From Candidatus Fraserbacteria bacterium (GTDB lineage Bacteria > Bipolaricaulota > Bipolaricaulia > RBG-16-55-9 > JAJCYT01), in contig JAJCYT010000026.1 of the NCBI GenBank assembly GCA_029262795.1, forward strand, positions 50,273-114,272: a stretch of 64,000 nt of DNA, written 5' to 3'. The position numbers and the translations under genes are program-made. The notes beneath the pieces are model-generated. The model had not been told where the DNA came from. It searched no databases and saw only the letters and a program-made list of their open reading frames with translations. Positions 1 to 55,677 of this stretch are shown piece after piece; positions within the stretch are counted from its first letter, which is position 1, and every line of letters begins with the position of its first letter.

Positions 1-976
1 ATAACAGTGGATCAAATCGCCTTCATCGCGGACCGCCCGTAAATCTTTTTTCTTGCGCAAATCATTATTGGAAATCAAACCGTTGGCGGCATTGAGAATG
101 TTGCCACTGCATCGATAATTTTGCCCCAAGGTCAATACTTTGGCACCAGGAAAATCACGCTCAAAGTTCAACAAATTGGTGGGGTCCGCCCCACGCCAGG
201 TGAAAATTGCTTGATCGTCATCGCCCACCACACACAGGTTTTGATGCTTTTCCGCCAGCAGACGGGTCAACTCATACTGCGCTACGTTGGTGTCCTGGTA
301 CTCATCCACCAGCATGAATTGGTATCGATTGTGGTAAGTTTCCAAAACTTCTGGAAATGATTCAAATAAATGAACCGTAAGTCGAATCAGGTCCGCAAAG
401 TCAAGGCTGTTACCGCGTTCCAGCTTTTGCTGATACCGCTTAAACACACTGCTGACCACATCGAGCAAGTAATCGTCCAGCGCATCTGCATAAGCGGCTC
501 CAAAACGGTTTGGACCAATCAGATGATCTTTGGCTCGATCGATGAGGGAGGCCAAAAATACGGGCTTAAATTCATCGGTGGACAGTCCCATTTCCTTGAT
601 GCACTCGCTGATCAAGCCTTTGGACTCTGTTTGATCCAGAATCGTAAAATTGCCGTTGTAGTGAGGAGAGAGGCGTTCAATGTGCTCACGCAGCCAACGC
701 GCACAGGTGGCGTGAAAGGTGCGAATCCATGGCGTCTGCCCAAATCCGATTAAGCCAGAAATGCGCTCGGCCATCTCGTCTGCCGCTTTGTTGGTGAAGG
801 TCACACCCAAAATTTGATGGGCCGGCACCGCGTGCTCTGCCATCAAATACGCAATGCGATGAGTGATCACACGCGTTTTCCCGCTGCCCGCCCCTGCGAA
901 AATCAGCAGCGGTCTCTCAACGTGCTGCACCGCCTCCTGCTGAACAGGATTCAATCCCTCTAACAACGCATTCACG
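1..976 (-). CDS. ATP-dependent DNA helicase, UvrD/PcrA/Rep family, N-terminal part; the gene continues beyond the window start
   Basis: Minus-strand translation from the GTG at 974-976 gives VNALLEGLNPVQQEAVQHVERPLLIFAGAGSGKTRVITHRIAYLMAEHAVPAHQILGVTFTNKAADEM. This contains the Walker A GAGSGKT motif and the conserved UvrD N-terminus. An RBS-like AGAGGA lies upstream. The ORF is open to position 1. Confidence 0.8.
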
Positions 977-1085
977 CTAAAAAGTCCTCTCTGGATCGCT
1001 TGATCAAGCTTTACTTTATTCAAAGTTTGTGTGGAACTCAAGATATAGACTTAAGAAAGTAATGATAAAATACAAATATGAGAAA

Positions 1086-1180
1086 GGCTTCAATCCCCCA
1101 ACCCCCTTTGTCTAAAGGGGGCTACGATGTATCTTTGAGTGCTGGTTCTGTTTTATGAATGTTGTTCTTTTCGGGGAAGA
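1086..1180. repeat. Dispersed REP/MITE-like repeat, forward copy (AATCCCCCAACCCCCTTT-N5-AAAGGGGGCTACGAT plus a roughly 55-bp tail ending TTTTCGGGGAAGAG)
   Basis: It matches copies at 18972, 39488, 55713 and 62262. The hairpin core is CCCCCTTT/AAAGGGGG. Confidence 0.75.
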
Positions 1181-1287
1181 GAAAAAAATTTAACCACTTA
1201 ATTCATGCCGTCAATCCTGGTCACATTCATTTATCCTTTGTAAAAGAAGCCTGTTTCTTGAAGCAAAATCCATGCTGAATGATCAAT

Positions 1288-1330
1288 CGTAGCCCCTTTA
1301 AGATCAAAGGGGTTGGGGATTTGAAGCCTT
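1288..1330. repeat. Inverted partial copy of the same repeat, forming an inverted pair with 1086-1127
   Basis: ATCGTAGCCCCTTTAAGATCAAAGGGGTTGGGGATTTGAAGCC is the reverse complement of the forward-copy consensus. Confidence 0.7.
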
Positions 1331-1390
1331 TACCATTTTATGGATAGATTCTTAAGCTTTTAATTTGATTTTATCTGACTGTTCATAAGC

Positions 1391-2404
1391 TCAATCCAAG
1401 CGACGACAGTGTTCTTCCATTTCCTGTGAGGAATCGAACGGAGCCACCTGGATGCGCATGGTTTCTTCGTCACTTTCAAAGCGATAGTGAGCGGGGATGC
1501 GGTGGGAACGATGTGCGTTGCTGTGTGTGGCAGCAATACGACCAGCCAATTCAACGATTTGTTTGATTTCGTTTGGTTTTTTCTCATCCCAGTTGGAACG
1601 AACCAAGGCCATTGGTGCATTGTGAACGGGGATGTAAAGACGAATATCAGTGGGCAGGAAGAAATTTTGCAGCTGTTTTTTCTCCTCCGGATCACAACCA
1701 AGTACAATTTTAACGTCCGGTGATTTTTTGTAGTAGTGTTGGAATTCCAACAGTTCGAGCGAGTTCATCGAAAAGGATTCTTCTTGCAGCAAATCTTCGA
1801 GTCGTACACCAAATCGTGAGGTGGTCAAACGACAACGGCGCTCGGCTGGATAACCTTCCACATTTACGTTCAGCTTTTTGGCCAACTTGACCAAAGCATC
1901 CGGCTGATCGGCGGTGAGTGCAAACAGTTGGCGCAGCCCCATCCAACCTTCGGTTTGTGGCTGGGTTTTCGGCAACAGGCGTGCGGAAAGTGGACGCACA
2001 ATGCGGCTGGCATCACCCACTTGCTCACCAATCCAACGCATATCTTCACTGCCTAAGCCACGCGTACCAACGATTTCGCCAGTGACAATGAAATCGGCAT
2101 TCACACGGCGCATATAACGTAAGCCTTTGGAAAGCATCAGGCTGCGACAGCCCATGCAGCAATCTCTAAGTTGGTAGGAATCATGAATATTGGTCAGTTC
2201 ACGGAAGTGATTTTTAACGCTTTGGCTATGCAAATCTGGCATCCATAACGAACGAGCCAGTTGTTTGGTTTCGCTGAAATATTTAAAAAACGGAGAGCGG
2301 AAGTGGAGAAGGCGAACATCGTCCACATTCGGGGCTTCCATGGCCAATTTTGCGGCAACCACGCTGGCCAAACTGCCTGAAAACAGGGCAACGGCTCGGA
2401 CCAT
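1391..2404 (-). CDS. PP-loop superfamily ATPase-like protein with a degenerate SGGxDS motif and a CCxGC cysteine cluster
   Basis: The 337-aa ORF has an N-terminal VALFSGSLAS stretch that resembles the SGGxDS PP-loop. The central CCMGCR motif is present. The exact family is not resolved. Confidence 0.4.
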   Translation of the reverse strand: MVRAVALFSGSLASVVAAKLAMEAPNVDDVRLLHFRSPFFKYFSETKQLARSLWMPDLHSQSVKNHFRELTNIHDSYQLRDCCMGCRSLMLSKGLRYMRRVNADFIVTGEIVGTRGLGSEDMRWIGEQVGDASRIVRPLSARLLPKTQPQTEGWMGLRQLFALTADQPDALVKLAKKLNVNVEGYPAERRCRLTTSRFGVRLEDLLQEESFSMNSLELLEFQHYYKKSPDVKIVLGCDPEEKKQLQNFFLPTDIRLYIPVHNAPMALVRSNWDEKKPNEIKQIVELAGRIAATHSNAHRSHRIPAHYRFESDEETMRIQVAPFDSSQEMEEHCRRLD

Positions 2405-2419
2405 AAAATAGCAAGGAGC

Positions 2420-2971
2420 TTAGTATTTGGGCGCTAGCAATTCGATCTGTCCATCGGCATGACGGTGCAAAATGTGAAGGCCCCCACCTTCGGCATCATC
2501 AAATAAAAACAAATCTCGATTGTGTGCATCGAGTTGCAACAGAGCTTCGGCCACCGTCATGGGTTTGCGTAGATGGACTTCAGTACGCATAACTTTTTCG
2601 GGATCAATCGCGTTGGAATCGGTTTCAAATGGGTCTTCTAAAGCTCCTGCTTCAACCTCCCCTTCCATTTCCGCGTGTGCGCGATGATCTTTAAGCTGTT
2701 CTTTGAAGCGTGTGAGTTGAACCTTCAGGTTCTCCGTGGCTTCATTGATCGCCATTTGCAAATCCTGGGACTGTGCTTCTGCCTTAACAATCTTTTTGCG
2801 AATCAAATGGGACACCAAACGCACGATAAAGTGATTTTTTTCGTGCTCGACCACAGCATCGATGCTAATGATTCGATCAAGATACCGTTCCAAGGCTTCA
2901 AGTTTGTCTTTGATGCCTTGACGGACTTCAGGTTTTAGTTTGATGTGTCGTTCTGAAACGCGTATTTTCAT
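2420..2971 (-). CDS. hpf: Ribosome hibernation promoting factor, long form
   Basis: The 183-aa protein MKIRVSERHIKL... shows HPF/YfiA-like N-domain features plus a C-terminal dimerisation domain (RKPMTVAEALLQLD...FLF). Confidence 0.75.
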   Translation of the reverse strand: MKIRVSERHIKLKPEVRQGIKDKLEALERYLDRIISIDAVVEHEKNHFIVRLVSHLIRKKIVKAEAQSQDLQMAINEATENLKVQLTRFKEQLKDHRAHAEMEGEVEAGALEDPFETDSNAIDPEKVMRTEVHLRKPMTVAEALLQLDAHNRDLFLFDDAEGGGLHILHRHADGQIELLAPKY

Positions 2972-3056
2972 TGCCGCTTGATCTTAGCACAAACTTGGCA
3001 TAGGGTCAATAGTTTTAAAATAGAAGCCATTTTCTTAATGTTCCCAATCCCTCAGC

Positions 3057-3722
3057 TCAACACCCGTTTGTGATTTTTTTGCCAGAAAAATCGGGACAAA
3101 AATCTTCTTCATCGGGGATGCCATCACCGTCTCGATCTGGCATTTTTAATATAACGATATTCATCACCACTGGCGTTAAGGGTCGATCTCGATCGTCCGT
3201 AGACACATCTGCAATGGCAAGCACAATATCCAAGCCACTAGCCACTTGTCCAAACACCGCAAAGTTGTCGTCTAAAAAGGGCAACGAATCTAGCGAAATA
3301 TAAAACTGGCTACTTCCACTGCTAGGGTCTTGGGCACGAGCCAGGGCCACCACACCAATTTTGTCGTGGCGAAGTTGTTTATTAATTTCAAGCGGTACTT
3401 TAGACTCAGCCCCACCCGTACCACACAAACCGCTTTCTGGATCTGGATCAGGCCGACAGTTTGGGTCACCCCCTTGAATCACAAAGCCTGGAATAATGCG
3501 ATGAAAAGTTAATCCGTTATAAAACCCATCGTTCACCAGATCCAAAAAGTTGTTTCCAGTGATGGGTACCAAATCAGCAAACACCTCGATCTCAATCGTG
3601 CCAAAGTTGGTTTCAAGCACCACAACCGGATTGCCTGTTGCTTCACTTTGGGATTGAGACACATCGCTAAAAATCATCAACCCTACTGTCAAAATAGCCA
3701 ACACCAATATGACGAATCGCAT
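3057..3722 (-). CDS. Secreted cyclophilin-type peptidyl-prolyl cis-trans isomerase with a C-terminal TSP3-like calcium-binding tail
   Basis: There is a signal peptide. The cyclophilin core is FHRIIPGFVIQGGDP. The C-terminal DRDGDGIPDEED repeat is Asp-rich. Confidence 0.8.
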   Translation of the reverse strand: MRFVILVLAILTVGLMIFSDVSQSQSEATGNPVVVLETNFGTIEIEVFADLVPITGNNFLDLVNDGFYNGLTFHRIIPGFVIQGGDPNCRPDPDPESGLCGTGGAESKVPLEINKQLRHDKIGVVALARAQDPSSGSSQFYISLDSLPFLDDNFAVFGQVASGLDIVLAIADVSTDDRDRPLTPVVMNIVILKMPDRDGDGIPDEEDFCPDFSGKKITNGC

Positions 3723-3758
3723 GTGTTTCCTCCTGATAAATCAGTTTGATATCAGGTA

Positions 3759-4400
3759 CTACGCCGCAACCGGCAAACCGATCACCCAAAATTGGATCAA
3801 TGTTTTCATATCGGCATCAGATAAGGGTTGATTCAGGCCAGGCGCAGGTTGACCACCAACCCACAGGCGAACAGCATTTAAGATTTCATCATCATCAATA
3901 AACCCACTGCTGTTGGTGTCTACTGCTTCAGCAACGGAAGTGCCTCCTGAGGAAGTTTCACCTGATGTGCGGAACGAAACTTCCATGCCTAAGTCGCGGT
4001 GGCCTGGGACTGGGCACCACAATTCATAGTCACCTGCGCTGAGTTGCACACGCAAAGTGCGGTTTTGACCGCCAGAAAACACTTCAGTTTCATCATTCAC
4101 ACCATTGCCGGTGATGGCCAAAGCATGAGGCACATTGCCATCGTTGCTGACCAAAAACTCGATGGTGCCTTCTTGAACTTCAATCACGTTTGTGCTGATA
4201 CCCCACTCAAACAAGCTGACATCGACAGTCTGGGCGACTTGTTCCAGCGATGTGTCCGCAGCCACCACTCGAAGTTGGACGTTCATCCATTGAGTGTTCG
4301 TAAAGGTGGTTGATGGATTCATTGTTCCATGAGACCAGGCGGTGGCAGTGACGATCAGCATTAGCGACAGCACGGTGAAAACGATTCGGAAATTACGCAT
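3759..4400 (-). CDS. Secreted cupredoxin-like (type-1 copper) protein with a dockerin-like C-terminal segment
   Basis: There is a signal peptide. H-x38-C-x3-H-x4-M (PHAL...WCPVPGHRDLGM) fits blue-copper ligand spacing. The C-terminal DTNSSGFIDDDEILNAV segment is dockerin or EF-hand-like. Confidence 0.55.
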   Translation of the reverse strand: MRNFRIVFTVLSLMLIVTATAWSHGTMNPSTTFTNTQWMNVQLRVVAADTSLEQVAQTVDVSLFEWGISTNVIEVQEGTIEFLVSNDGNVPHALAITGNGVNDETEVFSGGQNRTLRVQLSAGDYELWCPVPGHRDLGMEVSFRTSGETSSGGTSVAEAVDTNSSGFIDDDEILNAVRLWVGGQPAPGLNQPLSDADMKTLIQFWVIGLPVAA

Positions 4401-4609
4401 TATATGTCCCTCTCTTAAAAAATACCCAAAAGATACTTTATCTTAACTTTTCTTACAAAGCGATTCAAACCCACCGCCATCGTGGTTCAAGTTACTGTGA
4501 AAAACCGGTATGCTCTATAGGGTTGTTTTGCCAAGAGAAGCATCGTATTATCCTGATTCGGCAAACGCCGTTGATCTTTGAACAGGGATCAAGCGGCCAA
4601 AGGACATTT

Positions 4610-5932
4610 ATGCGTGTCATAGTGATTGGCGCAGGAGAAGTTGGTACCGCAATTGCCGAAGCCCTTTACCGCAACAACGATGTGGTGGTACTGGAGCGCG
4701 ATCACGCCCGTTATGAACTGCTGCAAAGCCTGGACATTCTGGTGATCGAAGGCAATGGCTCTTCACCCAAATCGCTGTTGGAAGCTGATGTGGACAAAGC
4801 CAATCTACTGATTGCCTGTACGAACGTCGATGAAATCAACATCGTGGCCTGCGCCACCTCCAAGCAACTCAATCCCAATTTAACCACCATTGTGCGTGTG
4901 CAAGACCCTGATTATCTGACCAATTGGCAGGAAGGTTATTTGGGCGTAGACGTGATGGTGTGTAGCGAACTGATTACCGCAAAATTTATTGCCATGAATT
5001 TGTCGATGCCCGAAGCCAAATATGTCAATGAATTTGCAGGCGGTAAAATTTTGATGACCGAAGTCAAGGTGCGGCGTGGTTCACAACTCGACAATGTGAC
5101 AATCACAGACAGTCGACCTCCTTCTGGTTGTAACGTAACCAGCATCATCCGCAATGGTCAAATCATCATTCCCAGTGGAGAAGATGTTTTGACATCGGGT
5201 GATTTGGTGGTCAGCATTGGCAAGCCTAAAGCGGTGGCAGAGTTCAACCGACGAATGACCGACAATACAAGCTTCCAGAGTGTGGCCATCATCGGCGGCG
5301 GTCGCATTGGCTTTCGTTTGGCCAGAATCCTGGAAAGCAAAGGCATGGCCCCTTACTTGATTGAAGCTGATGAAGAGCGCAGCCGCTGGTTGTCTGAGCG
5401 TCTCAAAAACACCTTGGTGCTGCATCACGATGGCACCGATGTCAACTTTTTAAAACAGGAAAAAATAGACAGTGTTGATGTGGTGGTCAACGTCACCGGC
5501 ACCGAAGAAAAAAACCTTCTGTCTGCCTTACTGCTCAAACGCATGGGAGTGAAACGCGTGTTCTGCCGCGTAAATCAGCCCTCTCACAGCCAGGCATTTG
5601 AAATGGTTGGGGTGGATGTGGCCATCAGCCCACGTAAACTGATTGCCGAAGAAATCATTCGCTTTACTCGAGATAGCGGCACAGAAGCCGTGTCCATGCT
5701 CGAAGAAGATCGCGCCGAAGTGCTGGAGTTGGAAATTCCTGAAAACAGCAAACTCAGTCATCGTTTGCTTGGCGACAAACTGTTCCCTCCTGGCACCATT
5801 GTGGGTGCCATCCTGCGTAATGACCAGGTCATCATGCCCCAGGGAGAAGATGTATTGCTTCCAGGCGATCACGCCATTGTGTTTGCAGAGGAGGACAAGG
5901 TCAAAACGGTGGAGGCGTTGCTAAATCCGTGA
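4610..5932 (+). CDS. trkA: Trk potassium uptake protein TrkA (two RCK_N domains)
   Basis: MRVIVIGAGEVGTAIAEAL is a Rossmann GxGxxG motif. A second such motif, IIGGGRIGFRLA, is present. The protein lies adjacent to trkH. Confidence 0.85.
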   Translation: MRVIVIGAGEVGTAIAEALYRNNDVVVLERDHARYELLQSLDILVIEGNGSSPKSLLEADVDKANLLIACTNVDEINIVACATSKQLNPNLTTIVRVQDPDYLTNWQEGYLGVDVMVCSELITAKFIAMNLSMPEAKYVNEFAGGKILMTEVKVRRGSQLDNVTITDSRPPSGCNVTSIIRNGQIIIPSGEDVLTSGDLVVSIGKPKAVAEFNRRMTDNTSFQSVAIIGGGRIGFRLARILESKGMAPYLIEADEERSRWLSERLKNTLVLHHDGTDVNFLKQEKIDSVDVVVNVTGTEEKNLLSALLLKRMGVKRVFCRVNQPSHSQAFEMVGVDVAISPRKLIAEEIIRFTRDSGTEAVSMLEEDRAEVLELEIPENSKLSHRLLGDKLFPPGTIVGAILRNDQVIMPQGEDVLLPGDHAIVFAEEDKVKTVEALLNP

Positions 5933-7386
5933 AACGCTCAACGGTTGTTGAGGTTCGCCCTGCCTTGCATCTGATTGCGGCCATCATTCGTTGGTTAAGC
6001 CTGACTTACCTCCCCCCTTTGATTGCTTCATTTTATTACCGTGAATCCTTTTGGCCATTTCTTATTCCGATGATTCTGGCTGTGATCATCGGCTTTGTCG
6101 GTGAACGCTTGACGCGATCTCCTAAGGAGCTTGGGATTCGTGAAGGCTTTTTGGTTGTCGCATTGGCTTGGTTGTCGATTGCAGCGTTTGGCGCGCTGCC
6201 CTATATCTTTTCCAATGTCAATCTCATCAACGCTTACTTTGAATCCATGAGTGGTTTCACCACCACAGGCGCAACCATTCTTAACGACATTGCCGAGCAG
6301 CCTCGCAGCCTGCTGTTGTGGCGGCAGTTTACCCAATGGTTAGGTGGCATGGGTATTATCGTACTGGCTGTGGCCATTTTACCAAAGCTGTCGGTGGGGG
6401 GGCGTCAATTGATGGAGGCCGAAGCCCCTGGCCCACAGGTAGACAAGTTGTATCCGCGCATTTACCAAACGGCACGCACGCTGTGGTTGTTGTATGTGGG
6501 ACTGACCGTGGTGGAATTTGCGATCTTTAAAATGCTGGGCATGTCCTTTTACGACAGCCTGGGGCATGCGCTGACCAATGTGGCCACAGGTGGGTTTTCT
6601 CCCGAACCGCGTAGCATCGAAGCATTTGGCCCTGCCATCCAATGGGTGGTCATTGTCTTTATGGTCATTGCCGGCACCAACTTCATTTTGCTTTATCGTG
6701 TGATTTCAGGCCGCTTTAATCGACTGTGGCAGGATCGAGAATTTCATTTTTACTTAGGTTTGATTTTCATCGCCGGCCTCACCATCACCTTATTGCTCCC
6801 TGGCGATTCCTGGGAAGAAAACATTCGCCACGGCTGGTTTCAGGCCATCACCATGATCACCGGCACCGGCTATGCCAGCACGGACTTTGATCAATGGTCA
6901 AGCACGCTCAAAATGATTTTGCTGACACTGATGTTTTTTGGTGGCTGTGCCGGAAGCACCACAGGCTCTATCAAAATTGTGCGTTTTGTTCTGGTGATTA
7001 AATTTCTGTTCCGTGAACTGCGAAAGGCCATCCACCCTCAGGCTGTCATTCCTATTCGACTGGGCAATCAAGTGGTTCCCGAAAACGCCCTCGGTGGCAT
7101 CATAGGCTTTACCGTTCTGTACTTTACGACTTTTGCATTTGGCAGCATTTTAATTTTGCTGGATGCTCAACGCGTTGGATTAGATTTAAGCGTGCTTGAA
7201 GGCATCAGTGTTGCTGCAGCAACGTTGGGCAACGTGGGTCCAGCTTTTGGCATTGCAGGCCCAATGGCTTCTTATGATGCCTTCCCCGAAACCTCAAAGT
7301 TGTTAATGATCTTCCTGATGTGGGCAGGCCGTTTAGAATTGTTCCCTGTGTTAGTGCTGCTCACACGTGGCTATTGGCGTCGCTGA
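5929..7386 (+). CDS. trkH: Trk potassium uptake membrane protein TrkH
   Basis: The 485-aa polytopic protein has repeated selectivity-filter-like GxG segments (TTTGATIL, TGTGYAS, GNVGP). Its start overlaps trkA by 4 nt. Confidence 0.85.
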   Translation: MKRSTVVEVRPALHLIAAIIRWLSLTYLPPLIASFYYRESFWPFLIPMILAVIIGFVGERLTRSPKELGIREGFLVVALAWLSIAAFGALPYIFSNVNLINAYFESMSGFTTTGATILNDIAEQPRSLLLWRQFTQWLGGMGIIVLAVAILPKLSVGGRQLMEAEAPGPQVDKLYPRIYQTARTLWLLYVGLTVVEFAIFKMLGMSFYDSLGHALTNVATGGFSPEPRSIEAFGPAIQWVVIVFMVIAGTNFILLYRVISGRFNRLWQDREFHFYLGLIFIAGLTITLLLPGDSWEENIRHGWFQAITMITGTGYASTDFDQWSSTLKMILLTLMFFGGCAGSTTGSIKIVRFVLVIKFLFRELRKAIHPQAVIPIRLGNQVVPENALGGIIGFTVLYFTTFAFGSILILLDAQRVGLDLSVLEGISVAAATLGNVGPAFGIAGPMASYDAFPETSKLLMIFLMWAGRLELFPVLVLLTRGYWRR

Positions 7387-7390
7387 AAAT

Positions 7391-8230
7391 TTACTCTTTC
7401 TTACCAGGCAGAATAATAATTTTACCATCTTCAAGTTTATATGTACCCGGAGATAAAATAATGGTGTCACCAGGTTTAGGAATAATGCCTGAACCAGAAC
7501 TGTTATCAGGTTTGATTTTGTTTGGTGGGATATAAAATTCTTCAATAGATCTGGGTGGCACCTTGATGCCTTTTGGTAATTGAATTTCTATCTTAGGAAA
7601 CTTTTCGCTAAATTCATCAATCCCACCTTTGGGCAACATTATCGCACCGCCATCACAACATTTTGGATTGGCTTCAATGTGGCGTACGAACCTGTATCCG
7701 TGCACAATCGCTAGCCGGAAAGAGGCCACCAAATCACCTTTAGGAAACGTTTCCCCGCCCAACTTAACCTCTTTGGCTGCTCTGGCTTGAATTTCAAAAG
7801 TCCATAAATAAAGCTGAACGGAGATGGTTTTCTGAAGACAAGGTTGTACGCTTTTCCAGTTTTTGGGAATGCTTTTTAGGTCAATCTTCTTAACTCGATC
7901 TTCCTTAAACATTGATTGAACGTCTTCTAGCACCTTGGCTAGAAGCTTATCGTCGGCAAGCCTTGCTTCATTTGATTTACGCACCCCTTCCAACATCTGG
8001 CTGCGCTCGCGACCTTGTAAAAATTTTGGATCAAACTGATCATCCAGTAAATCATCTTCTAATGGGAATTTTCTATTTGCGCCTCCTGGCTCAGGGTGAC
8101 AATCGTATAAAAAAATATCGTGTCGTCCTTTTTCATATTCAAATAAGATGAGCTTGGAGGTGAACACAAGCGAACCACGTTTAAGCATGATGTTGACTCC
8201 CTTGATCAGTTTTAGCTTATTGTAAAACAA
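7391..8230 (-). CDS. Hypothetical protein (orphan, AT-rich cargo ORF)
   Basis: The 279-aa ORF is about 37% GC in a roughly 50% GC context. I recognise no domain. It sits between the trkH 3' end and a degenerate duplicate of that end. Confidence 0.5.
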   Translation of the reverse strand: MFYNKLKLIKGVNIMLKRGSLVFTSKLILFEYEKGRHDIFLYDCHPEPGGANRKFPLEDDLLDDQFDPKFLQGRERSQMLEGVRKSNEARLADDKLLAKVLEDVQSMFKEDRVKKIDLKSIPKNWKSVQPCLQKTISVQLYLWTFEIQARAAKEVKLGGETFPKGDLVASFRLAIVHGYRFVRHIEANPKCCDGGAIMLPKGGIDEFSEKFPKIEIQLPKGIKVPPRSIEEFYIPPNKIKPDNSSGSGIIPKPGDTIILSPGTYKLEDGKIIILPGKKE

Positions 8231-8244
8231 ATGGTGTTTTTTTG

Positions 8245-8340
8245 TCGAATGTAGCGAATTGTATTGAATGTTTTTCTGATATGGGCAGGTCGTCTGGCAT
8301 TGTTCCCCGTGCTGCTGACTCGCGGTTATTGGCGTCGATA
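8245..8340 (+). pseudogene. Degenerate duplicate of the trkH 3' end (it encodes WAGRLALFPVLLTRGYWRR* compared with the authentic WAGRLELFPVLVLLTRGYWRR*)
   Basis: It shows about 80% nt identity to 7300-7386 with a 3-bp indel. It has no upstream ORF body. Confidence 0.75.
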
Positions 8341-8341
8341 G

Positions 8342-10303
8342 CTAATCGGCCAGCCCTAGTTTGCCAAGCAGCTCTTTGAAGCCTGGCTCTTCGCGCAAGG
8401 GGTCAAAAGAGGTATGAACTTTTGCATAACTTATTAAGCGGTCACGCTGCTCGTAACCTTTCCACAAGTATTTCATTGCTGCTTCAATTTTACCCAAAGC
8501 GATGTAAACAAAAGCAATGGCCACAGGTGAAACCAAACTATCGAGCTGCCTATCTAACATATTTGTCAATATGTCATAAGCCCGTAGCTGCTCCCCCTGA
8601 ACTGCATGGATAGAAGCACACAGTGAATCCGACATATCTGTTGTACCTTGGGTGCGAGTGAATTTGCCCAGCAAGCTCAATGCTTCATCAAACTGTGCGG
8701 TTTGGTAAAGCACTTGCACAAGGTAATATTTTACCAGACCGGAGTCAGGATAGTTCTTAAAGAGATGCCTCATATACCGCTCACTTTCTTCAAAACTTCC
8801 CCGAAATAAAAAATCCAGACCGATATTGGCTTGGATGATGATCGAGAGTGGGTCCAACTCCAATGCTCGATTGAGTTCCTTCGTCGCTTTATCATGTTGC
8901 TTCAATTGACTCAGATTATTTCCATACCAGTGGTGGGCAGTGGCATAATTGGGATTGAGTTCAATCGCTTTTAGAAAAGAAGCTTCAGAGCCCTCCCAAT
9001 CAAAGTCCTTGCTTTTAATTTGACCAAGCGATGCATAGGCTTCTCCTAAGTTTGGATCAAGTTCTAAAGCTTTTTCAATGGCCTGACTCGCATGTTCAAC
9101 AATCTTTTCGGTTCCCATATTCATCGAAAAGTTGTCGAGTATGAGATAAGCATCAGCAAGGCCAACATAAGCCAACGCATAGTTTAGGTCGACTTGAATT
9201 GCTGATTCAAAACATTTGATAGATTGTAAAACGGATTCATTACTTCGCTGATTCCAGAGATGTAAGCCTTGAAGATAGTGATGATATGCTTCAGTGCTTT
9301 CAGTTTGATTGGTAGTCAGTTGCGCTCGTTCTTCCGAGGTCATGTTGGCCTGGAGGGCTTCCACAATTTTCTCTGCCACTTCAGTTTGCACCTCAAAAAT
9401 GTTATCAAGGTTTCGATCATAGCTGTCGGCCCACAAATGTTCGTCTGTAACTGCATTGATCAACTGCGCCGTGATGCGAACCTGATTGCCTGCGCGTCTA
9501 ACCGAGCCTTCGACGACAGTGGCAACGCCAAGTTCTCTGCCAATTTCTCTCAGATTTCTTTTCACACCTTTGTATTGCATGACTGAGGTTCGGCTGATGA
9601 CTTTAAGTTCACGCACTTTGCAGAGTTTGGTCAGAATATCTTCGGTCAAGCCATCGCTGAAATACTCGTTGTCTGGATCTGTGCTGAGATTGTCGAATGG
9701 TAACACAGCAACAGATTTATCGGAAATATCAACAGCTTCAGAATTTTCCGCATTCTCTATTGATTGCGATGGATGGTTCTGCCAGTGAGGGACCACTTTG
9801 AATACTTCAATCGGGTTGTCAATATTTTTCAATTCGGGCGTACCGATGCTTTCAAACTCGGTATTTAGTTTGGCCTGCACATTGTCATACACATTGCGCG
9901 TGATGCAGATGCCAGCAGGATCAGCGAGAGGTTCAATACGGGAAGCAATGTTAACGCCGTCGCCAAAAATATCGTCGTTTTCGGAATGAACATCGCCCAC
10001 ATGAATCCCGATGCGTAAATTGATGGTGTGATCCTGTGGCTGACCTTTGTTAAATCCATGCAACATGCTCTGGATAGAAATAGCACAATCCACTGCGCTT
10101 AAAGCGCTGCCAAATTCCACCAAAAAACCATCACCCATCGTTTTAACCAGCGTCCCCTGATGCTGCTCTAAAAACGGGATGAGCAATTGCCGTTTGGTTG
10201 AGATCAACTTGAGGGCGAGTGATTCGTCTTTCTGCGTCAACGCACTAAAGCCAACCAAATCAGTGAACATAATGGCAGCAAGGCGGCGATGGTTTTGAGT
10301 CAT
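8342..10303 (-). CDS. Class III adenylate/guanylate cyclase with a COG5616 (TolB-N-like) middle domain and C-terminal TPR repeats
   Basis: The N-terminal cyclase signature is FTDLVGFSALT...TMGDGFLVEF...LRIGIHVGDV. The central VAVLPFDNLS...YFSDGLTEDI segment is present. The C-terminal half is a TPR-like helical-repeat region. Confidence 0.75.
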   Translation of the reverse strand: MTQNHRRLAAIMFTDLVGFSALTQKDESLALKLISTKRQLLIPFLEQHQGTLVKTMGDGFLVEFGSALSAVDCAISIQSMLHGFNKGQPQDHTINLRIGIHVGDVHSENDDIFGDGVNIASRIEPLADPAGICITRNVYDNVQAKLNTEFESIGTPELKNIDNPIEVFKVVPHWQNHPSQSIENAENSEAVDISDKSVAVLPFDNLSTDPDNEYFSDGLTEDILTKLCKVRELKVISRTSVMQYKGVKRNLREIGRELGVATVVEGSVRRAGNQVRITAQLINAVTDEHLWADSYDRNLDNIFEVQTEVAEKIVEALQANMTSEERAQLTTNQTESTEAYHHYLQGLHLWNQRSNESVLQSIKCFESAIQVDLNYALAYVGLADAYLILDNFSMNMGTEKIVEHASQAIEKALELDPNLGEAYASLGQIKSKDFDWEGSEASFLKAIELNPNYATAHHWYGNNLSQLKQHDKATKELNRALELDPLSIIIQANIGLDFLFRGSFEESERYMRHLFKNYPDSGLVKYYLVQVLYQTAQFDEALSLLGKFTRTQGTTDMSDSLCASIHAVQGEQLRAYDILTNMLDRQLDSLVSPVAIAFVYIALGKIEAAMKYLWKGYEQRDRLISYAKVHTSFDPLREEPGFKELLGKLGLAD

Positions 10304-10396
10304 GGGCGCATTGTAATGAAAAAACGGTATGTTTGTGAATCAAAACCAACATCACTGAAAAAATCATCACCAGGCAAAAATCATCTAAATTAGCCA

Positions 10397-10464
10397 AATG
10401 TAGCCCCCTTCAGATTTTGGAAGGGTCCCCCTTCTAGACAAAGGGATCTGGGGGATTCAAGCCT
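10397..10464. repeat. REP/MITE-like repeat copy (reverse orientation, with a nested extra hairpin)
   Basis: GTAGCCCCCTTCAGATTTTGGAAGGG...AAAGGGATCTGGGGGATTCAAGCC. Confidence 0.6.
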
Positions 10465-10499
10465 TTAAATTTTCAATAATTTTGGTTTATGATTGTTGA

Positions 10500-10567: not shown

Positions 10568-11512
10568 TTAGAGGGTGCCTAAGCCGGAATTTGGAGCCAG
10601 GTCCACCAGATCATCACCACTGAAATCGGTGTATTGTGAAAAACACAGCCACTGAACATCGCCAGGAGAGCCAAGCAACTCCAGGTTGAGGCGCATGGTC
10701 AGAAAGTTGCCATCGACTTCACTGTTGATGCCCAAGATGGTGTCGTTGGGGCTGGCAGTATTAACCAGCGTGGCAAATGGATTGCCTGGAATCCAGTTGC
10801 TGAGTGCAAAGAATTCAAACCCACTAGGGTTGAATGGCGCAGCAAAGCTGGCATCTCCATCGGTATCCAGATAGCAGCCAATCTGACGTGGTTCATCCAA
10901 CACGATTTCTGGCAAAATGCCCAGCATGTTGAAAGTAAACACCAGGTCGGTTTCAGAACGCGTGGCGCGAAGGTCTACAATATCAATGCCATTGACGTCC
11001 TCCGACACTGCGTCGCCTGAGGCTCGATCAAACAAATCGTTGACACTGTCCTGAACATCGAAAGTGCTTTCAAAATCGACCACGGTCAGGTCAAAGCGAA
11101 CAGATTTGTTGGCCGTTCGTGGAGCGTCACATTCACTGGCCAGACCACTGGCCACAAAGGTCATTGGATATACGCCTGCTTCCGAAGCTTCGAGCACTTT
11201 GATCTGGAAATTAAAATCCAGTTTCTGCCCCTGATTGATGACCCAGGAGTTGCCTCCTTGACGGTCAAACACCAAATTTGCATTCAACACATTGGCCGAA
11301 ATACGCCAACTGCCCATTACAGCTTCAGCGCTAAAACCAATGTCAATCGTTTCACCTGGCAACAGCACGGCATCGACAGGGTCCAGATCTAGTCCGCCAC
11401 GTGCCAATACCAAGCCGCATCTGGCACCGGTTTGTGCCACAGAATCAGAAACCAGCCCGATCAGGGCCAGGGATAAAATCATCATGCCAAAAATAGTTTG
11501 CCATCTTTTCAT
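10568..11512 (-). CDS. Secreted hypothetical protein
   Basis: The start is placed at MKRWQTIFGMMILSLALIGL, a signal peptide. I recognise no domain. Confidence 0.55.
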   Translation of the reverse strand: MKRWQTIFGMMILSLALIGLVSDSVAQTGARCGLVLARGGLDLDPVDAVLLPGETIDIGFSAEAVMGSWRISANVLNANLVFDRQGGNSWVINQGQKLDFNFQIKVLEASEAGVYPMTFVASGLASECDAPRTANKSVRFDLTVVDFESTFDVQDSVNDLFDRASGDAVSEDVNGIDIVDLRATRSETDLVFTFNMLGILPEIVLDEPRQIGCYLDTDGDASFAAPFNPSGFEFFALSNWIPGNPFATLVNTASPNDTILGINSEVDGNFLTMRLNLELLGSPGDVQWLCFSQYTDFSGDDLVDLAPNSGLGTL

Positions 11513-11934
11513 GTCAGTCCTCCTTGTATCTTTCACCTTACTTTGATTGGATGCTATTCCCTTCATTAAAACCCAAGGAACGTACAAAATGGATGCACTG
11601 GAGGTGAAAAACACATGCAAGTTACCTTCAGATTACCTGAAGTCAAAAACCAACTTGATTGATGTTTGGAAAAATAAAATGCAGGTTCTGTCTTTGCGCT
11701 TGCGGTTTTTGGTCGCTTCCACTTCCATTTTGAATGTCAAAACCAAACGCATATAAATATTTTGCACTACAAAACATTAGAAAAACTCTGTAGTATTTAT
11801 CACACTCGCTGCACCTATGGCAGATGCACAAAAAATTCCGAGATCTGCCTAAAACTTGGTCATATTTTTATGATTTTTGCTACGCTTATCATAAGTGTGA
11901 GAAAATGATTCATTAGACAAAGGAGAGGCTGAGT

Positions 11935-17892: not shown

Positions 17893-17911
17893 AAAACTCC
17901 TTAATAAAAAA

Positions 17912-17950
17912 TTGTAAAAGACTTCAAATCCCCAACCCCTTTAATCTTAA
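17912..17950. repeat. REP/MITE-like repeat copy (forward)
   Basis: CTTCAAATCCCCAACCCCTTTAATCTTAAAGGGGCTAAG. Confidence 0.6.
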
Positions 17951-18091
17951 AGGGGCTAAGCTTAGATTTCGATGGTTGATTCTGTATGACGAATCATTTT
18001 CTATTCGATTATAAAAAAATTTCTGTTCTCAGTGGAGATCGTACCCGCAATTGTTAGAATGGGGCAACTTCCTGTTAACCGGAGGCTGAGG

Positions 18092-18922: not shown

Positions 18923-18971
18923 TTTTAAAAGAGGTGCTTAAAGAGCAAAGGCATTAAATCATGGTTAAAGC

Positions 18972-19060
18972 GTCTAATCCCCCAACCCCCTTTACATAAA
19001 GGGGGCACGATAAGTCTGTGAGTGCTTATTCTTAATTACGAAACGTGATTTTTAATGAAC
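18972..19060. repeat. REP/MITE-like repeat, full-length forward copy
   Basis: TAATCCCCCAACCCCCTTTACATAAAGGGGGCACGATAAGTCTGTGAGTGCTTATTC... Confidence 0.75.
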
Positions 19061-19192: not shown

Positions 19193-19240
19193 AATCGTAG
19201 CCTCCCTTAGCAAAGGGGGCTGGAGGGATTGAAAGCCTTT
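19193..19240. repeat. REP/MITE-like repeat, inverted copy pairing with 18972
   Basis: AATCGTAGCCTCCCTTAGCAAAGGGGGCTGGAGGGATTGAAAGCC. Confidence 0.65.
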
Positions 19241-22199: not shown

Positions 22200-22517
22200 T
22201 GCGCCTCCTAATAAATCGTGAATTTAAGTGGGCATCAATATATCTGCGTGACGAATGGATCACAACCACATCACGACAGGTGTTGGTCCACAAAAAATTA
22301 TTGAATCATTTTTCCAAGTTAATCAATTCACTCTTTAATCATTCAAATTGATATCTTCCCTTTCATGGAATGATAACCGTATCCACACTGAACTATCGTT
22401 GAAAAGGAGAAAAACAGGAGTTACCTTCTTTCGTTTTGGCATCAGCCAAATAAATCAATTTTGAATGTCCATCATGTAAAACTGAAGTTATCAGGTTATG
22501 AAAAAAGGACGGTTGGT

Positions 22518-23192
22518 GTGAATAAAACTTATCGTTGGATTGGATTGATGGGTGTGATTGTCATCATGCTGGTAGCAATGGGTGTGCCTAGTTTAAGCGC
22601 GTTTCAATCGTACCAAGACAGCTTCGGCGATGATGACAGTGGCTGGAAAGAAGATTTCCGGTGGACTTACACCGAAGGCCAATATCGTGTGTTTGTTCGC
22701 AATCCTAACACCATAGACGGATCCGAAATGCCGGATGGCAGTGTTTTTGACCTCAATCAATATTGTGCCGAAGTGGACATCAAACTATTGACAGGATCCG
22801 GCTTGGCAGAAGATGGATTTATTGGCTTCTACATTGGCGGAACGGATATTCCCAGGCGTTTTTCTGTTCCGGGAAGAGCGGTGCTATTTGGTCTCGATAG
22901 TTTCGAACGTCTGATTGTTCTCAGAACAGATTTAGACACCTCCAATGGGCGGGTTTCCCTTGATGTGGTTACCATCATCGGTGAGGCTTTTGAAAACCCC
23001 AACGCCTTCCATACGCTTCAAGTGGATGCCAACGGCTCCAATGTACGCGTTTCCATTGATGATGTCTTTATCACTTCTGTATCTGTAAACACTGTTGGCA
23101 ATATGGGCTTTATGGCTTTTACTTTTGATGATCCAAACCTAAATGCCCGTTTTGACAATATTTCTGTAACCCCCGGTGGCTGCACACCTTAA
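22518..23192 (+). CDS. Secreted hypothetical protein, paralogue A of a tandem pair
   Basis: The start is GTG. There is a signal peptide. It shares motifs with 23354-24022 (QDSFGDD.SGWK, GFIGFY, FDDPNLNARFDNI). Confidence 0.55.
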   Translation: MNKTYRWIGLMGVIVIMLVAMGVPSLSAFQSYQDSFGDDDSGWKEDFRWTYTEGQYRVFVRNPNTIDGSEMPDGSVFDLNQYCAEVDIKLLTGSGLAEDGFIGFYIGGTDIPRRFSVPGRAVLFGLDSFERLIVLRTDLDTSNGRVSLDVVTIIGEAFENPNAFHTLQVDANGSNVRVSIDDVFITSVSVNTVGNMGFMAFTFDDPNLNARFDNISVTPGGCTP

Positions 23193-23221
23193 GACCCAAA
23201 TCCGAATTCAAGCAATTCGAT

Positions 23222-23257
23222 GCCAGAGCCTGTCATCACGACAAGCTCTGGCTTTTT
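23222..23257 (+). terminator. Rho-independent terminator between the tandem paralogues
   Basis: GCCAGAGC-N15-GCTCTGGC is followed by TTTTT. Confidence 0.55.
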
Positions 23258-23353
23258 CACTCCTCCCTCTTGAAACTAATTTTTCCGTTTCGCTAAACTG
23301 AAATAAATGCCTAGATGTTTTCACACAAGGGCTATTTCGGGAGGTGGTGGTGG

Positions 23354-24022
23354 ATGGTTTCATCCTCACAAAACCGTGTTGTTGTTTTGATGGTGGTAGG
23401 CTGTCTGCTCTGGCTGGTCTCCGGCTTTGCCAGCGACGTGCAAATACTGTATCAGGATGACTTTGTCAGCGAACAAAGCGGCTGGAAGGTCGATCACTTT
23501 TGGTCCTATGCCGGTGGTGAATATCGTGCATTTCTAAGTGAGTCTGAAAGCGCCTTGGCATCGGCCTTGCCCGCACCTCATTTGTTCGGTTTAGAACCTT
23601 TTTGCGCCCAAGTGAACGTCCGGCTGCTCAAAGGCTCAGGCTTGGCTCAGGATGGATTCGTTGGTTTTTATCTGGCAGGCCGTGCTGATGATTCCAATGA
23701 TTTTCCTAGCAATGCGGTGCTGATTGGCCTTGATAGTTTCAATCGTCTACTGGTGATGGAATCCTTTTTCAACCAAAGCCTCAATCGCGTGGACACCAGC
23801 ATTTTGTTGTCTGTGAACAACGCTTTCAACGACTTGAGTCAATTCCACACCTTATTGATTGCTGCCCAGGACAACCAAGTCAAGGTGGTGTTGAACGGCC
23901 AATTCTTCGGTACAGTCGACCTCTTTGGCATTACAGGCGAAATGGGCCTGACCGCATTTTCATTTGACGATCAAAATCTGAACGCCCGTTTCGACAATGT
24001 AAGAATCACAGATTCCTGTTAA
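23354..24022 (+). CDS. Secreted hypothetical protein, paralogue B of the tandem pair
   Basis: There is a GGGAGG RBS. There is a signal peptide. Its C-terminus, FDDQNLNARFDNVRITDSC, matches paralogue A. Confidence 0.55.
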   Translation: MVSSSQNRVVVLMVVGCLLWLVSGFASDVQILYQDDFVSEQSGWKVDHFWSYAGGEYRAFLSESESALASALPAPHLFGLEPFCAQVNVRLLKGSGLAQDGFVGFYLAGRADDSNDFPSNAVLIGLDSFNRLLVMESFFNQSLNRVDTSILLSVNNAFNDLSQFHTLLIAAQDNQVKVVLNGQFFGTVDLFGITGEMGLTAFSFDDQNLNARFDNVRITDSC

Positions 24023-37338: not shown

Positions 37339-37680
37339 TTGCGATTCGAACAAATTGTGATTTCCAACGTATATTATGATGTGATGATTTATAAAGATTA
37401 TGTTGTAAACGAATGGAAACGGCGAATCAGAATAAGACTCATCCTTCTTGGCTTCATATTAGCTTGCTTAGCTTTATTTGTTACATTAGGTATTTATCGA
37501 GGATCATGTTTAGAAAATTGTTTTGACCCTACTGTGCCAATGATCATATTAGGCGTACTTTTTCTAACATTATTCTTTGTTGCTCTTAGATATGTCCGGT
37601 GTCCTGCCTGTGAAAAATTTACAGGGAGAGACACTAACAAATTTTGTACCAATTGCGGTGTGAAGCTAAAGGAAATATGA
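37339..37680 (+). CDS. Small membrane protein with a C-terminal zinc ribbon (paralogue 1)
   Basis: It has two TM helices and then CPACEKF-x9-CTNCG. The local GC is about 35%. Confidence 0.5.
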   Translation: MRFEQIVISNVYYDVMIYKDYVVNEWKRRIRIRLILLGFILACLALFVTLGIYRGSCLENCFDPTVPMIILGVLFLTLFFVALRYVRCPACEKFTGRDTNKFCTNCGVKLKEI

Positions 37681-37976
37681 AAGATCAAGAATTATTTATG
37701 AGTCGCTGGCAAAAGCGTAAGAAATGGAAAAGATTTCTCTCAGCTTCTTCAATTGTTAGTTCTATTGTTTTTGTTATTCTATTCTTTAATTGGAATTGGT
37801 TTTTATCTGGAAATATTTATGCCGACATAGTGTTTTACTTCGCATTACCTGCCCTACCAATTCAGATAGGGCTAATCTATGGATTATCAAACTGCCCAAA
37901 ATGCGGTGAAATCCCTGGAGGAAAAAGTTTTATGTTTTGCAAAAACTGTGGAGTAAGACTTGAAGAGACCGATTAA
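37677..37976 (+). CDS. Small membrane protein with a C-terminal zinc ribbon (paralogue 2)
   Basis: It has an ATGA overlap with the previous ORF. It has TM helices and then CPKCGEI-x9-CKNCG. Confidence 0.5.
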   Translation: MKDQELFMSRWQKRKKWKRFLSASSIVSSIVFVILFFNWNWFLSGNIYADIVFYFALPALPIQIGLIYGLSNCPKCGEIPGGKSFMFCKNCGVRLEETD

Positions 37977-37982
37977 CCACAA

Positions 37983-38064
37983 CCACAGCCGCCGGATTCT
38001 GCTTGGGCTTCGCTGGGGTTTTCGATGTAAAAACCTTTGCCGTGTTCGCCGGATGTGAAATCTA
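37983..38064 (-). pseudogene. Truncated remnant of an iscA-like gene 3' end (it encodes ...SGEHGKGFYIENPSEAQAESGGCGCG)
   Basis: It is a diverged duplicate of 39027-39135. It abuts the stop of the hydrolase gene and has no N-terminal part. Confidence 0.7.
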
Positions 38065-39021
38065 GTTTTTATTCAAGAAATCATTCACCAACTGCGCAAT
38101 TTCATCTGGCGCATCTTCTGGGCTGTAATGACCAACATTCGGTAGCCGTTGAATTGGAGCATCTGGAAAAAGCTGGCTGAAAAGTGGCAGGAAATGTTCG
38201 GCGTGAAGGGTGCGATCCTGCTCTCCCCAGATGGCAAGCGCGGGTTTGTTTTTGATTTTAGCTTTCACTGAATCATCTGGATCTTCAAATTGGTGCATCC
38301 CTGTAGCAAAACCTTTGGCCCATCCAATTGCACCTGCTGCATGGGCAGGTGTAGGAAACGGCGCACGATAAGCATTGATCCAAGTGTCATTAATGATTTC
38401 ATTTCGAACAAAACCGTTCAATTTGAGCGTGGAAAGCATGTTGTAGTCAAGATGTCCCAACACTTCTTCAAGGATACCTTTTTCCTCCGACTGACCAATC
38501 CATTGAAACCAAGGCGAAACAGCAACATTGGCCATGACACGATCAAGTAAGTCAGATTGCCCTAATGGCGTTGGGCCGTTGACGGAGGCGATTCGCTTGA
38601 TTCTATCTGGCTGGCGAGCTGCCAATCCCATGCCAGCCGGTCCGCCGAAATCATGCATCACCAGAGTGATGTCATTCAGGTCGAGCTTTTTTACAAATGA
38701 TTCCAAATTGTCGATATGATCTTGAAGCCAATAGGTACGATCCTGTGGTGCAGCACTTTTACCAAACCCCATATGGTCTACAGCAATTACTCGCGCGCTT
38801 TTTGACCAAACAGGAATTTGTTGACGGAACAAATATCCCCACGTTGGCTCGCCATGAAGCAGCAAAAGTGTTTCTTCGCCTTTTCCTTCATCGACGTAAT
38901 GCATCTTGAATCCTGGGGCATCTGTAAATCGAGCTTGGAATGGCCAGGAGCCATCAAATGTTTCATTGGCAGAAACCGCCGGAGTTTGAGCAGATGGTTT
39001 CAGATCAGCATTTGCTGACAT
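38062..39021 (-). CDS. Alpha/beta-fold hydrolase (haloalkane dehalogenase or epoxide hydrolase-like)
   Basis: The oxyanion hole is HGEPTWGYLF. The nucleophile elbow is DHMGFGKS. The start is chosen at MSANADL, directly after the iscA-like stop. Confidence 0.7.
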   Translation of the reverse strand: MSANADLKPSAQTPAVSANETFDGSWPFQARFTDAPGFKMHYVDEGKGEETLLLLHGEPTWGYLFRQQIPVWSKSARVIAVDHMGFGKSAAPQDRTYWLQDHIDNLESFVKKLDLNDITLVMHDFGGPAGMGLAARQPDRIKRIASVNGPTPLGQSDLLDRVMANVAVSPWFQWIGQSEEKGILEEVLGHLDYNMLSTLKLNGFVRNEIINDTWINAYRAPFPTPAHAAGAIGWAKGFATGMHQFEDPDDSVKAKIKNKPALAIWGEQDRTLHAEHFLPLFSQLFPDAPIQRLPNVGHYSPEDAPDEIAQLVNDFLNKN

Positions 39022-39023
39022 GG

Positions 39024-39373
39024 TCAGCCACAACCACAGCCGCCAGAACCACAACCGCAACTGCCGGACTGTTCCTGATCTTTGGCTTCGTTGGGGTTTT
39101 CGATGTAAAAACCTTCGCCGTGTTCGCCGGACATAAAGTCCACTTTGGCACCGGCCAAAAGCGTTCCACTGTTGGCATCCACATAGAAGTTTACACCGTC
39201 GTATTCGAGGATGGTGTCGTCGTCACTGCCGTCCTGGGCCAGGAAAAAGCCGTATTTCATGCCACTGCAACAACCGTCTTGAGCCACGATGCGAAGACCG
39301 AAATCTTCTTTTTGTTCGCTTTTCAAATAGTCTTTTACAGCGTCAACCGCTTTTTCTGTAATAGTGATCATAA
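39024..39373 (-). CDS. IscA/HesB/ErpA-family A-type iron-sulfur carrier with an unusual Cys/Gly-rich C-terminal tail
   Basis: The start is MITITEKAVDAV... with an AAGGAG RBS. The IscA-like core is GCCSGMKYGF. The C-terminal tail is SGSCGCGSGGCGCG. Confidence 0.65.
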
Positions 39374-39872: not shown

Positions 39873-40095
39873 CTGTTGAAAACCCTGTTGAAAACTCGGC
39901 AAAATCTGTTGAAAACCTGTTCAAAACTTGGGGGCCAACTGTTGAAAACTCCTGTTGAAAACTCGGCTCCAGAGTTTTGCACAGGGGTTTTCAACAGGAA
40001 AGACAAAGTTTTGAACAGGTTTTGCACAGGGTTTTCAACAGGGTATACCTACTACAAACGCAGTTAGGTTGGAAAGTTCGGAAAGTTTTCAACAG
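39873..40095. promoter_or_regulatory. Cluster of 12 DnaA-box-like 9-mers (6 direct CTGTTGAAAAC-type, then 6 inverted GTTTTCAACAG or GTTTTGCACAG), a candidate oriC
   Basis: Direct copies start at 39873, 39885, 39906, 39917, 39939 and 39952. Inverted copies start at 39974, 39987, 40008, 40019, 40031 and 40085. The cores TTTTCAACA and TTTTGCACA are 1 mismatch from the TTTTCCACA box variant. Both flanks are AT-rich. The cluster is upstream of recF. Confidence 0.45.
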
Positions 40096-41859: not shown

Positions 41860-41936
41860 GCCATAGAACTTTATCTGAAGGATAACGCCCGATTAGAAAA
41901 CCCTTCTTGAGGCAGAACATGCCAACGAAGCCCAAT

Positions 41937-41985
41937 TGTAGCCCCCTTTAGTAAAGGGGCTGGGGGATTTGAAGTCTTTTATATT
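41937..41985. repeat. REP/MITE-like repeat copy (reverse)
   Basis: TGTAGCCCCCTTTAGTAAAGGGGCTGGGGGATTTGAAGTC. Confidence 0.65.
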
Positions 41986-42086
41986 TTAGCTGTTCATCTG
42001 TTCAAAAAGCCACTAGAAAAAACGTTTTATAGAGTATCAAAAATATTTGATTTATATAGAGCATGATGTATAGTGATTATGGTATG

Positions 42087-48244: not shown

Positions 48245-48245
48245 A

Positions 48246-55646: not shown

Positions 55647-55677
55647 GGGCGTACCTTTTACGGTGCGCCCTTTTTTT
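55647..55677 (+). terminator. Rho-independent terminator of the ATP synthase operon
   Basis: GGGCGTACC-ttttac-GGTGCGCCC is followed by TTTTTTT. Confidence 0.8.

Follow-up and report, generated by a model that had tools for sequence, protein, structure and literature searches.

How does a complete trkH gene come to be followed, one gene further on, by a second and decaying copy of its own 3' end? This arrangement is found in a 64,000-nt stretch of DNA from Candidatus Fraserbacteria bacterium (GenBank assembly GCA_029262795.1, contig JAJCYT010000026.1, positions 50,273 to 114,272), which was analysed as a whole and is called the window in the following. Between trkH and the copy lies a single AT-rich gene in opposite orientation, referred to here as the cargo gene. 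As judged from sequence comparison, the locus is probably the product of a terminus-displacing single-gene insertion by recombination within the trkH terminus. A second insertion of the same layout is located 30 kb away, and this uncultivated marine bacterium may acquire single genes repeatedly by terminus displacement.

The insertion target trkH (5929..7386, + strand) is intact. It encodes 485 amino acids, which is the length of its orthologues, matches PF02386 with an E value of 1.7e-70 and ends in ...WAGRLELFPVLVLLTRGYWRR* with the stop codon at 7386. The last ~28 codons together with the TGA stop (7301..7386, +) constitute an attL-like repeat, the inferred imported replacement. Its attR-like counterpart, the displaced original terminus, is a remnant at 8262..8341 (+) that still reads ..VFLIWAGRLALFPVLLTRGYWRR* in frame. 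Two direct imperfect repeat blocks make up the match, 7312-7350 versus 8273-8311 (82% identity) and 7354-7382 versus 8309-8337 (86%). The original prediction, made from the DNA letters, had placed the end of trkH at 7386 and a degenerate in-frame copy downstream of it. Both were confirmed, the copy far beyond chance: BLAST of the window against itself returned the repeat with an E value of 3e-7, and tblastn with the TrkH C-terminal peptide detected the copy at ~1e-10, the next best match in the window being 0.57. Two details required correction. The copy starts near 8262 and not at 8245, its extent of 8262-8341 becoming apparent once it is compared with the genome of a relative, and the deletion between the repeat blocks comprises 6 bp instead of 3 bp, an in-frame loss of the two codons VL. 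This two-codon loss is accompanied by the substitutions M>I and E>A in the conserved GRLELFP motif, all of them changes of the pseudogene type, and the copy is closed by a TAG stop. Since an independent Logan assembly matches the locus at 100% identity over 13.4 kb and the remnant carries these pseudogene-type changes, an assembly error is unlikely.

The GTDB representative genomes contain no close relative of the organism (best TrkH match 50%). The closest relative is represented by two records, a 3.2-Mb JGI contig (L002) and a 1.0-Mb ENA contig (L003), with 91% amino acid identity in TrkH and ~82% nucleotide identity to the window. The comparison of the locus that the original prediction had proposed shows trkH directly followed by the adenylate cyclase gene in this relative: the trkH stop adjoins the stop of a convergent adenylate-cyclase/tetratricopeptide repeat (TPR) gene, and the cargo gene is missing. 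Positions 1-7382 and 8262-10410 of the window align to one unbroken stretch of the relative, with synteny breaking exactly at 7382/8262, and the last ~82 nt of the relative's trkH match both copies in the window. The native right flank is the adenylate/guanylate cyclase-TPR gene (8342..10303, -; 653 aa; PF00211 and TPR families), convergent with trkH and syntenic with L002 at 82% nucleotide identity. The trkH remnant abuts its stop codon in the same arrangement as the functional terminus does at the empty site. By this alignment, the 0.96-kb DNA is an insertion relative to the empty site. Two further relatives (L175, TrkH 86%; L086, TrkH 72%) have neither the cargo gene nor the cyclase gene downstream of trkH, and because of this the region downstream of trkH is, on the genomes compared, a variable spot in the clade. 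In these two genomes, trkH is followed by a homologue of window 10568-11620. The cyclase gene itself also has a lowered GC content of 44.6%.

Which of the two trkH ends is the original one? They differ at 11 synonymous and 2 non-synonymous codons. This pattern therefore indicates that both evolved as working trkH ends in separate genomes, and on this count a duplication in situ is excluded. The C-terminal peptide of TrkH is the same as that of the sister genome L002, and the nucleotide identity of the functional terminus to the relatives amounts to 77-79%. The remnant and the L002 terminus are identical at 57/60 positions from TGGGCAGG onward and share signature codons. The stop codon is TGA in the functional terminus and TAG in both the remnant and the sister genome. 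The downstream copy is thus supported as the displaced native end, an assignment that rests mainly on position, stop codons and decay, and the copy now completing trkH would have come from another, related genome. The donor was presumably a relative because the imported terminus encodes a peptide identical to the native one. RNA structure or a terminator was rejected as the cause of the remnant's conservation: no strand folds better than its shuffled versions (z +0.7 to +1.35). No terminator-like site was found at the trkH end, and no tRNA or Rfam matches were obtained within the window. The original prediction had interpreted the locus as the trace of an element that integrates into a gene's 3' end and replaces it, leaving the old end as a stub. 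The empty site, the separate origins of the two trkH ends and the decay of the remnant bear out the insertion and the stub; a mechanism encoded by the element itself received no support.

A comparable arrangement was encountered at an iscA/HesB-like gene (39024..39371, -; 115 aa; PF01521), whose last ~105 nt (39024-39131) serve as the repeat arm. Only 2 nt after its stop begins a single inserted gene, encoding an alpha/beta hydrolase (38062..39021, -; PF00561, E 6.7e-24). It is followed by a displaced iscA terminus (37974..38062, -), a remnant that reads DFTSGEHGKGFYIENPSEAQAESGGCGCG* in frame and differs by 1 synonymous and 3 non-synonymous changes from the functional copy of a sister genome. 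In the window self-BLAST, 37975-38053 and 39047-39131 matched with 85% identity and an E value of 1e-18. The sister genome contains a different single gene at its iscA site (L177 8001-9510, JGI Ga0315338_1000001), which encodes a 327-aa YncE-like beta-propeller on the opposite strand. Behind it stands a heavily decayed iscA remnant, DFEFDERNEDFYTENPNEESGSCDSSGCG*, which begins at the same iscA nucleotide as the remnant in the window and has the same downstream flank. This sister remnant is separated from its functional copy by 3 synonymous and 8 non-synonymous codon changes; because the window remnant shows 1 and 3, the two iscA remnants appear to differ in age. The window remnant has the TAA stop and the AES signature of the sister genome, and the functional copy has TGA and the variant DQEQS. 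In both events in the window, the remnant retains the stop codon of the sister and the functional copy ends with TGA. A screen for such remnants over ~1.5 Mb of unrelated loci yielded at most one plausible comparable case, a comparison to which ascertainment bias applies.

The surroundings of the iscA site show two peculiarities of their own. Beside the remnant, window 37339-37976 encodes a tandem pair of paralogous small membrane proteins, each with a C-terminal zinc ribbon, in a stretch of ~37% GC. An imperfect palindrome of 163 nt (70%) occupies 39882-40044, in the interval from the iscA-like gene to recF.

The cargo gene at trkH is separated from the trkH stop by a 4-nt spacer, AAAT (7387..7390), as read directly from the sequence, and its own stop codon faces that of trkH. 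It is a single opposite-strand open reading frame (ORF) at 7391-8230, as first described, and remains open to a TTG at 8230. The protein length of 279 aa counted from there is likely too great. The most likely start is the ATG at 8188, because AAGGGAG precedes it, the N-termini of homologues align there and a protein-collection record uses the same start; the gene (7391..8188, -) would then encode 265 aa. The upstream region, which forms the right end of the insert (8189..8261, -), has a GC content of 34% and contains the Shine-Dalgarno sequence AAGGGAG and a promoter-like site, TCGACA-18-TACAAT at 8248-8219, the latter being a consensus match only. The AT-richness of the cargo gene was confirmed, at a measured GC content of 40.9% rather than the predicted ~37%, and of 36.5% at third codon positions (GC3). 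The values for trkH are 50.1% and 55.6%. In GC content, the insert ranks among the bottom 2.5% of windows of its size.

In agreement with the earlier statement that the cargo protein lacks a recognisable domain, searches of Pfam, NCBIfam, PHROG and PADLOC retrieved no match. It is no orphan, as had been assumed, but a member of a rare uncharacterised family. A word-indexed protein search returned only the protein itself, and the family profile added one more. An exhaustive HMMER scan of 1.84 billion representatives then expanded the family to 44 representatives, the best with 52% identity and most with ~30%. The members have a length of 230-260 aa and share the invariant residues C30, G36, C117 and C177-C178 as well as the conserved motifs FLQ..E, GD.VA.FR and NP.CC, after which follows a variable, charged C-terminal tail. 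The proposed defence role was not substantiated: matches in PADLOC and PHROG were absent, plasmid records, phage records and viral contigs contained no match, and the homologues are situated as single genes or tandem pairs amid housekeeping genes. Neighbouring genes give no hint of a link between the cargo and K+ transport. Adjacent tandem paralogues of the family were observed in two unrelated genomes (L164 7209-8906; L172 1-1226). Several members end in an aromatic-x-aromatic sequence (RYRF, EYKF, RYWF, FEFKF) that resembles an outer-membrane beta-signal, and they have no signal peptide.

An AlphaFold2 model of the cargo protein, based on a 28-sequence alignment, reached a pLDDT of 84.3 and a pTM of 0.71. 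It consists of long beta-hairpins (7-29, 118-137, 153-173) and two helices. The structure prediction and profile search that had been suggested thus gave a confident fold and no structural match: Foldseek searches of PDB and BFVD gave no match (best E 0.2, TM below 0.2), a profile search of the PDB with the family gave a best E value of 0.19, and 28 family members compared with profile databases produced stray single-member matches only. A Shine-Dalgarno sequence, 44 homologues, the presence of every invariant residue and the confident model speak for the cargo being a real gene. Its product is most likely a non-enzymatic accessory protein constructed around a long beta-sheet, with a cluster of four cysteines.

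The proposed course of events at trkH is the following. The incoming DNA of ~0.96 kb would have carried the last ~28 codons and the stop of trkH from a related lineage, with the same amino acids, different codons and TGA, and in addition a single convergent cargo gene, equipped with a ribosome-binding site and a promoter-like site of its own. By recombination inside the trkH terminus this DNA would have been spliced in, and trkH would since then be completed by the imported copy. The native terminus would have been shifted 955-961 bp downstream, where it would still abut the cyclase gene and decay. Since the insert encodes no recombinase, the joining was presumably done in trans. We favour a site-specific recombinase that is encoded elsewhere and acts on a cargo-only unit with a gene-end copy as attachment site, in the manner of prophage e14 at icd or of a cis-mobilizable element but with a single gene, because the layout recurs at iscA and the sister genomes hold different cargo behind remnants with the same first nucleotide. 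A broader reading would be that the lineage uses integrase-less single-gene cassettes, with a ~80-100-nt copy of a housekeeping gene's 3' end as attachment site, which are inserted either by a recombinase in trans or through circular intermediates on which host recombination acts. Each insertion would replace the end of the gene and turn the old end into a stub, the site being an exchange point for different cargo. This generalization is speculative and, in our estimation, rather unlikely.

Several observations weigh against an insertion of foreign DNA by a recombinase acting in trans. The original prediction had noted that the insert contains no integrase; there is also no integrase or other recombinase within ±10 kb, and each of the ten ORFs of integrase size tested elsewhere in the window proved to be a housekeeping gene, none of them a recombinase. 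The two trkH copies, 82-86% identical, share no uninterrupted match longer than 11 nt, and this pairing is looser than that of icd and icdC at the Escherichia coli prophage e14 (152/165), the only att pair examined for comparison. In four other genomes (L164, L166, L169, L171), the homologues of the cargo are devoid of flanking gene-end repeats. With 79% identity to L002, the functional terminus is ordinary for this genome pair (mean 82%), and three-taxon site patterns neither mark it as foreign nor reveal a donor tract boundary upstream. It is the remnant that stands out: window 8281-8341 is 95% identical to L002 7392-7458, above the expectation for a native orthologue; of the 60-nt windows, no more than 1.9-3.9% attain this level. 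Possible reasons are chance or a short tract recombined between lineages. Sequence divergence by itself is therefore insufficient to prove which trkH copy is foreign. Finally, the comparison covers three related genomes, and the polarity of the event, a gain here versus a loss in the sister, rests on parsimony.

The rival explanations differ in the source of the DNA and in the way it was joined. In homology-facilitated illegitimate recombination (HFIR), also described as C-terminal displacement, one-sided homologous recombination would have taken up linear DNA of a relative that naturally carries the cargo gene next to trkH, on its downstream side. The donor trkH part would pair as the anchor, and the far end would join illegitimately ~80 nt upstream of the resident stop, for which neither a mobile element nor a recombinase is needed. 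Such an event would explain why no recombinase was found nearby and why the imported terminus encodes the exact host peptide, so that the donor is a relative. At iscA, the hydrolase gene begins 2 nt past the iscA stop, as a native operon neighbour would. The window contains dprA, though this gene is widespread, and the same mechanism was put forward to explain displaced 3' fragments at type VI secretion system (T6SS) and Rhs loci (PMC5361080). However, HFIR is reported to occur less often than ordinary recombination by orders of magnitude (PMC5361080). Its illegitimate joins are expected at arbitrary positions, whereas the three remnants all comprise ~80-105 nt and extend exactly to the stop codon, and the two iscA remnants share their first nucleotide despite different ages and cargoes. 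The GC3 of the cargo lies far below that of the host, and the gene would hence be foreign in a related donor as well. No clear microhomology was seen at the junction near 8262. HFIR is a serious though less likely explanation; the data do not choose between one-sided homologous recombination and a recombinase acting in trans.

Decay of a larger element would account for the same layout in another way. An integrase-bearing island or prophage at the trkH 3' end may have been reduced to one gene and two att repeats and be immobile now, a relic of the type of a cis-mobilizable element (CIME). The gene-end repeats flanking the insert, the empty site of the relative and the AT-rich cargo agree with this, CIMEs have by definition lost their integration and transfer genes and kept attL and attR (PMC5704250), and e14 at icd provides a precedent. 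The original prediction had followed this line in assuming that only one cargo gene of a larger element remains. No trace of such an element was detected: the insert is maximally compact, with its 4-nt spacer and 73-nt upstream region, and contains no pseudogene debris. The two additional single-gene insertions of the same layout argue against it, as all three events (trkH, iscA in the window and iscA in the sister genome) hold exactly one intact gene, an unlikely outcome of independent decay. A fuller, integrase-bearing element, which the original prediction had suggested looking for, was absent from the site in three relatives, and in the few relatives compared no related integrase-bearing element occupies these sites. 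A decayed island is accordingly an unlikely source. An origin without any incoming element is extremely improbable. Slippage can produce direct repeats, and the trkH end may have been duplicated in tandem in situ and diverged later; but 11 of the 13 codon differences are synonymous, for which each copy must have been under selection in a different genome, the terminus of the sister resembles the remnant far more than the functional copy, and the cargo between the copies has homologues elsewhere. Likewise, metagenome assemblies can join strain variants into a chimera; yet two assemblies agree here at 100% identity, and the disabling changes in the remnant are not expected of a functional strain variant. 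The terminus-displacing single-gene insertion thus remains the probable reading.

Terminus-replacing integration is already well known for integrase-bearing prophages and islands. The present case is set apart by a recombinase-less single-gene unit, its occurrence at two sites within 64 kb and the presence of two cargoes at one site across sister genomes. If the recurrence holds, terminus displacement would provide an uncultivated marine lineage with a cheap, gene-by-gene route of gain, and it would leave a signature that can be searched for in metagenomes, namely the final ~30 codons of a gene repeated in decayed form ~1 kb downstream. The trkH cargo is of separate interest: its family is rare and uncharacterised, four cysteines are invariant in it, and the fold, predicted with confidence, has no structural match.

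Further features of the window were recorded alongside. Intergenic repeats of ~50-100 nt, partly palindromic and similar to repetitive extragenic palindromic (REP) sequences, are located at 1069-1340, 10427-10466, 17902-18022, 18923-19032, 19194-19240, 41890-41989, 55674-55758 and 62257-62298. The repeat family is common to the relatives (L002 9509-9568; the 404-bp spacer after trkH in L175). A 544-aa ORF at 48174-49808 consists of six tandem ATP-synthase c-subunit domains (PF00137) with internal repeats of ~261 nt, and a further c-subunit-like terminus follows at 50047-50148. Two adjacent paralogous genes (22461-24022; 243 and 235 aa) share the conserved C-terminal motif ..F.FDD.NLNARFDN.., and a 32-nt near-perfect palindrome is present at 61188-61219.

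The trkH gene did not turn up as an integration target in a limited full-text literature search. The closest likeness is to the cryptic prophage e14 (and phage 21) at icd, where the element supplies a substitute 3' end, the target stays intact and the old end persists as the pseudogene icdC on the far side. In E. coli K-12, as checked here, the prophage begins 165 nt ahead of the stop codon of icd, and icdC, located beyond e14, is identical to the icd end at 152/165 positions. In contrast, e14 comprises 15 kb and encodes intE and xisE, whereas the insert at trkH has 0.96 kb, one gene and no recombinase, with shorter (~80 nt) and less similar (~82%) repeats at its ends. CIMEs retain attL and attR and have lost integration and transfer genes (PMC5704250). 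Like them, and like islands at gene 3' ends such as SGI1 at trmE, the unit described here is flanked by attL/attR-like repeats of the target-gene end and has no integration or transfer genes. CIMEs, however, are decayed integrative and conjugative or integrative and mobilizable elements recognised by kinship, whereas no parent element is known here and the three events each contain one intact gene. In the C-terminal displacement of Rhs, contact-dependent inhibition (CDI) and T6SS loci, a conserved segment upstream anchors the incoming DNA, which delivers new genes downstream of it and displaces the old 3' fragment in the downstream direction (PMC5361080). This process, for which HFIR was proposed, resembles the trkH locus in that incoming genes push the old 3' fragment downstream. 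It differs in that the exchange at those loci concerns immunity genes and variable toxin tips, while both ends at trkH encode the same housekeeping terminus and the cargo is unrelated to the target.

A diversity-generating retroelement (template and variable repeat) was rejected as an explanation for the repeats, since their mismatches involve all four bases and the cargo has no reverse-transcriptase domain. The cargo was also rejected as an integron gene cassette: no inverted repeat brackets or adjoins it, and no recombinase was present among the ORFs tested. In marine picocyanobacteria, tycheposons and other tRNA-flanked islands are described, in the portion of the preprint consulted, as leaving partial target copies as att remnants and as undergoing successive integrations at one site (bioRxiv 10.1101/2020.12.28.424599). 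As far as that portion goes, tycheposons differ from the insertions described here in their tyrosine recombinases and tRNA-gene attachment sites, as opposed to protein-coding ends with no recombinase seen, and resemble them in their marine, streamlined hosts, in cargo at conserved sites and in the partial target copies left behind. Should the lineage indeed use single-gene cassettes of the kind considered above, they would resemble integron cassettes in their logic, with core-gene ends as the targets.

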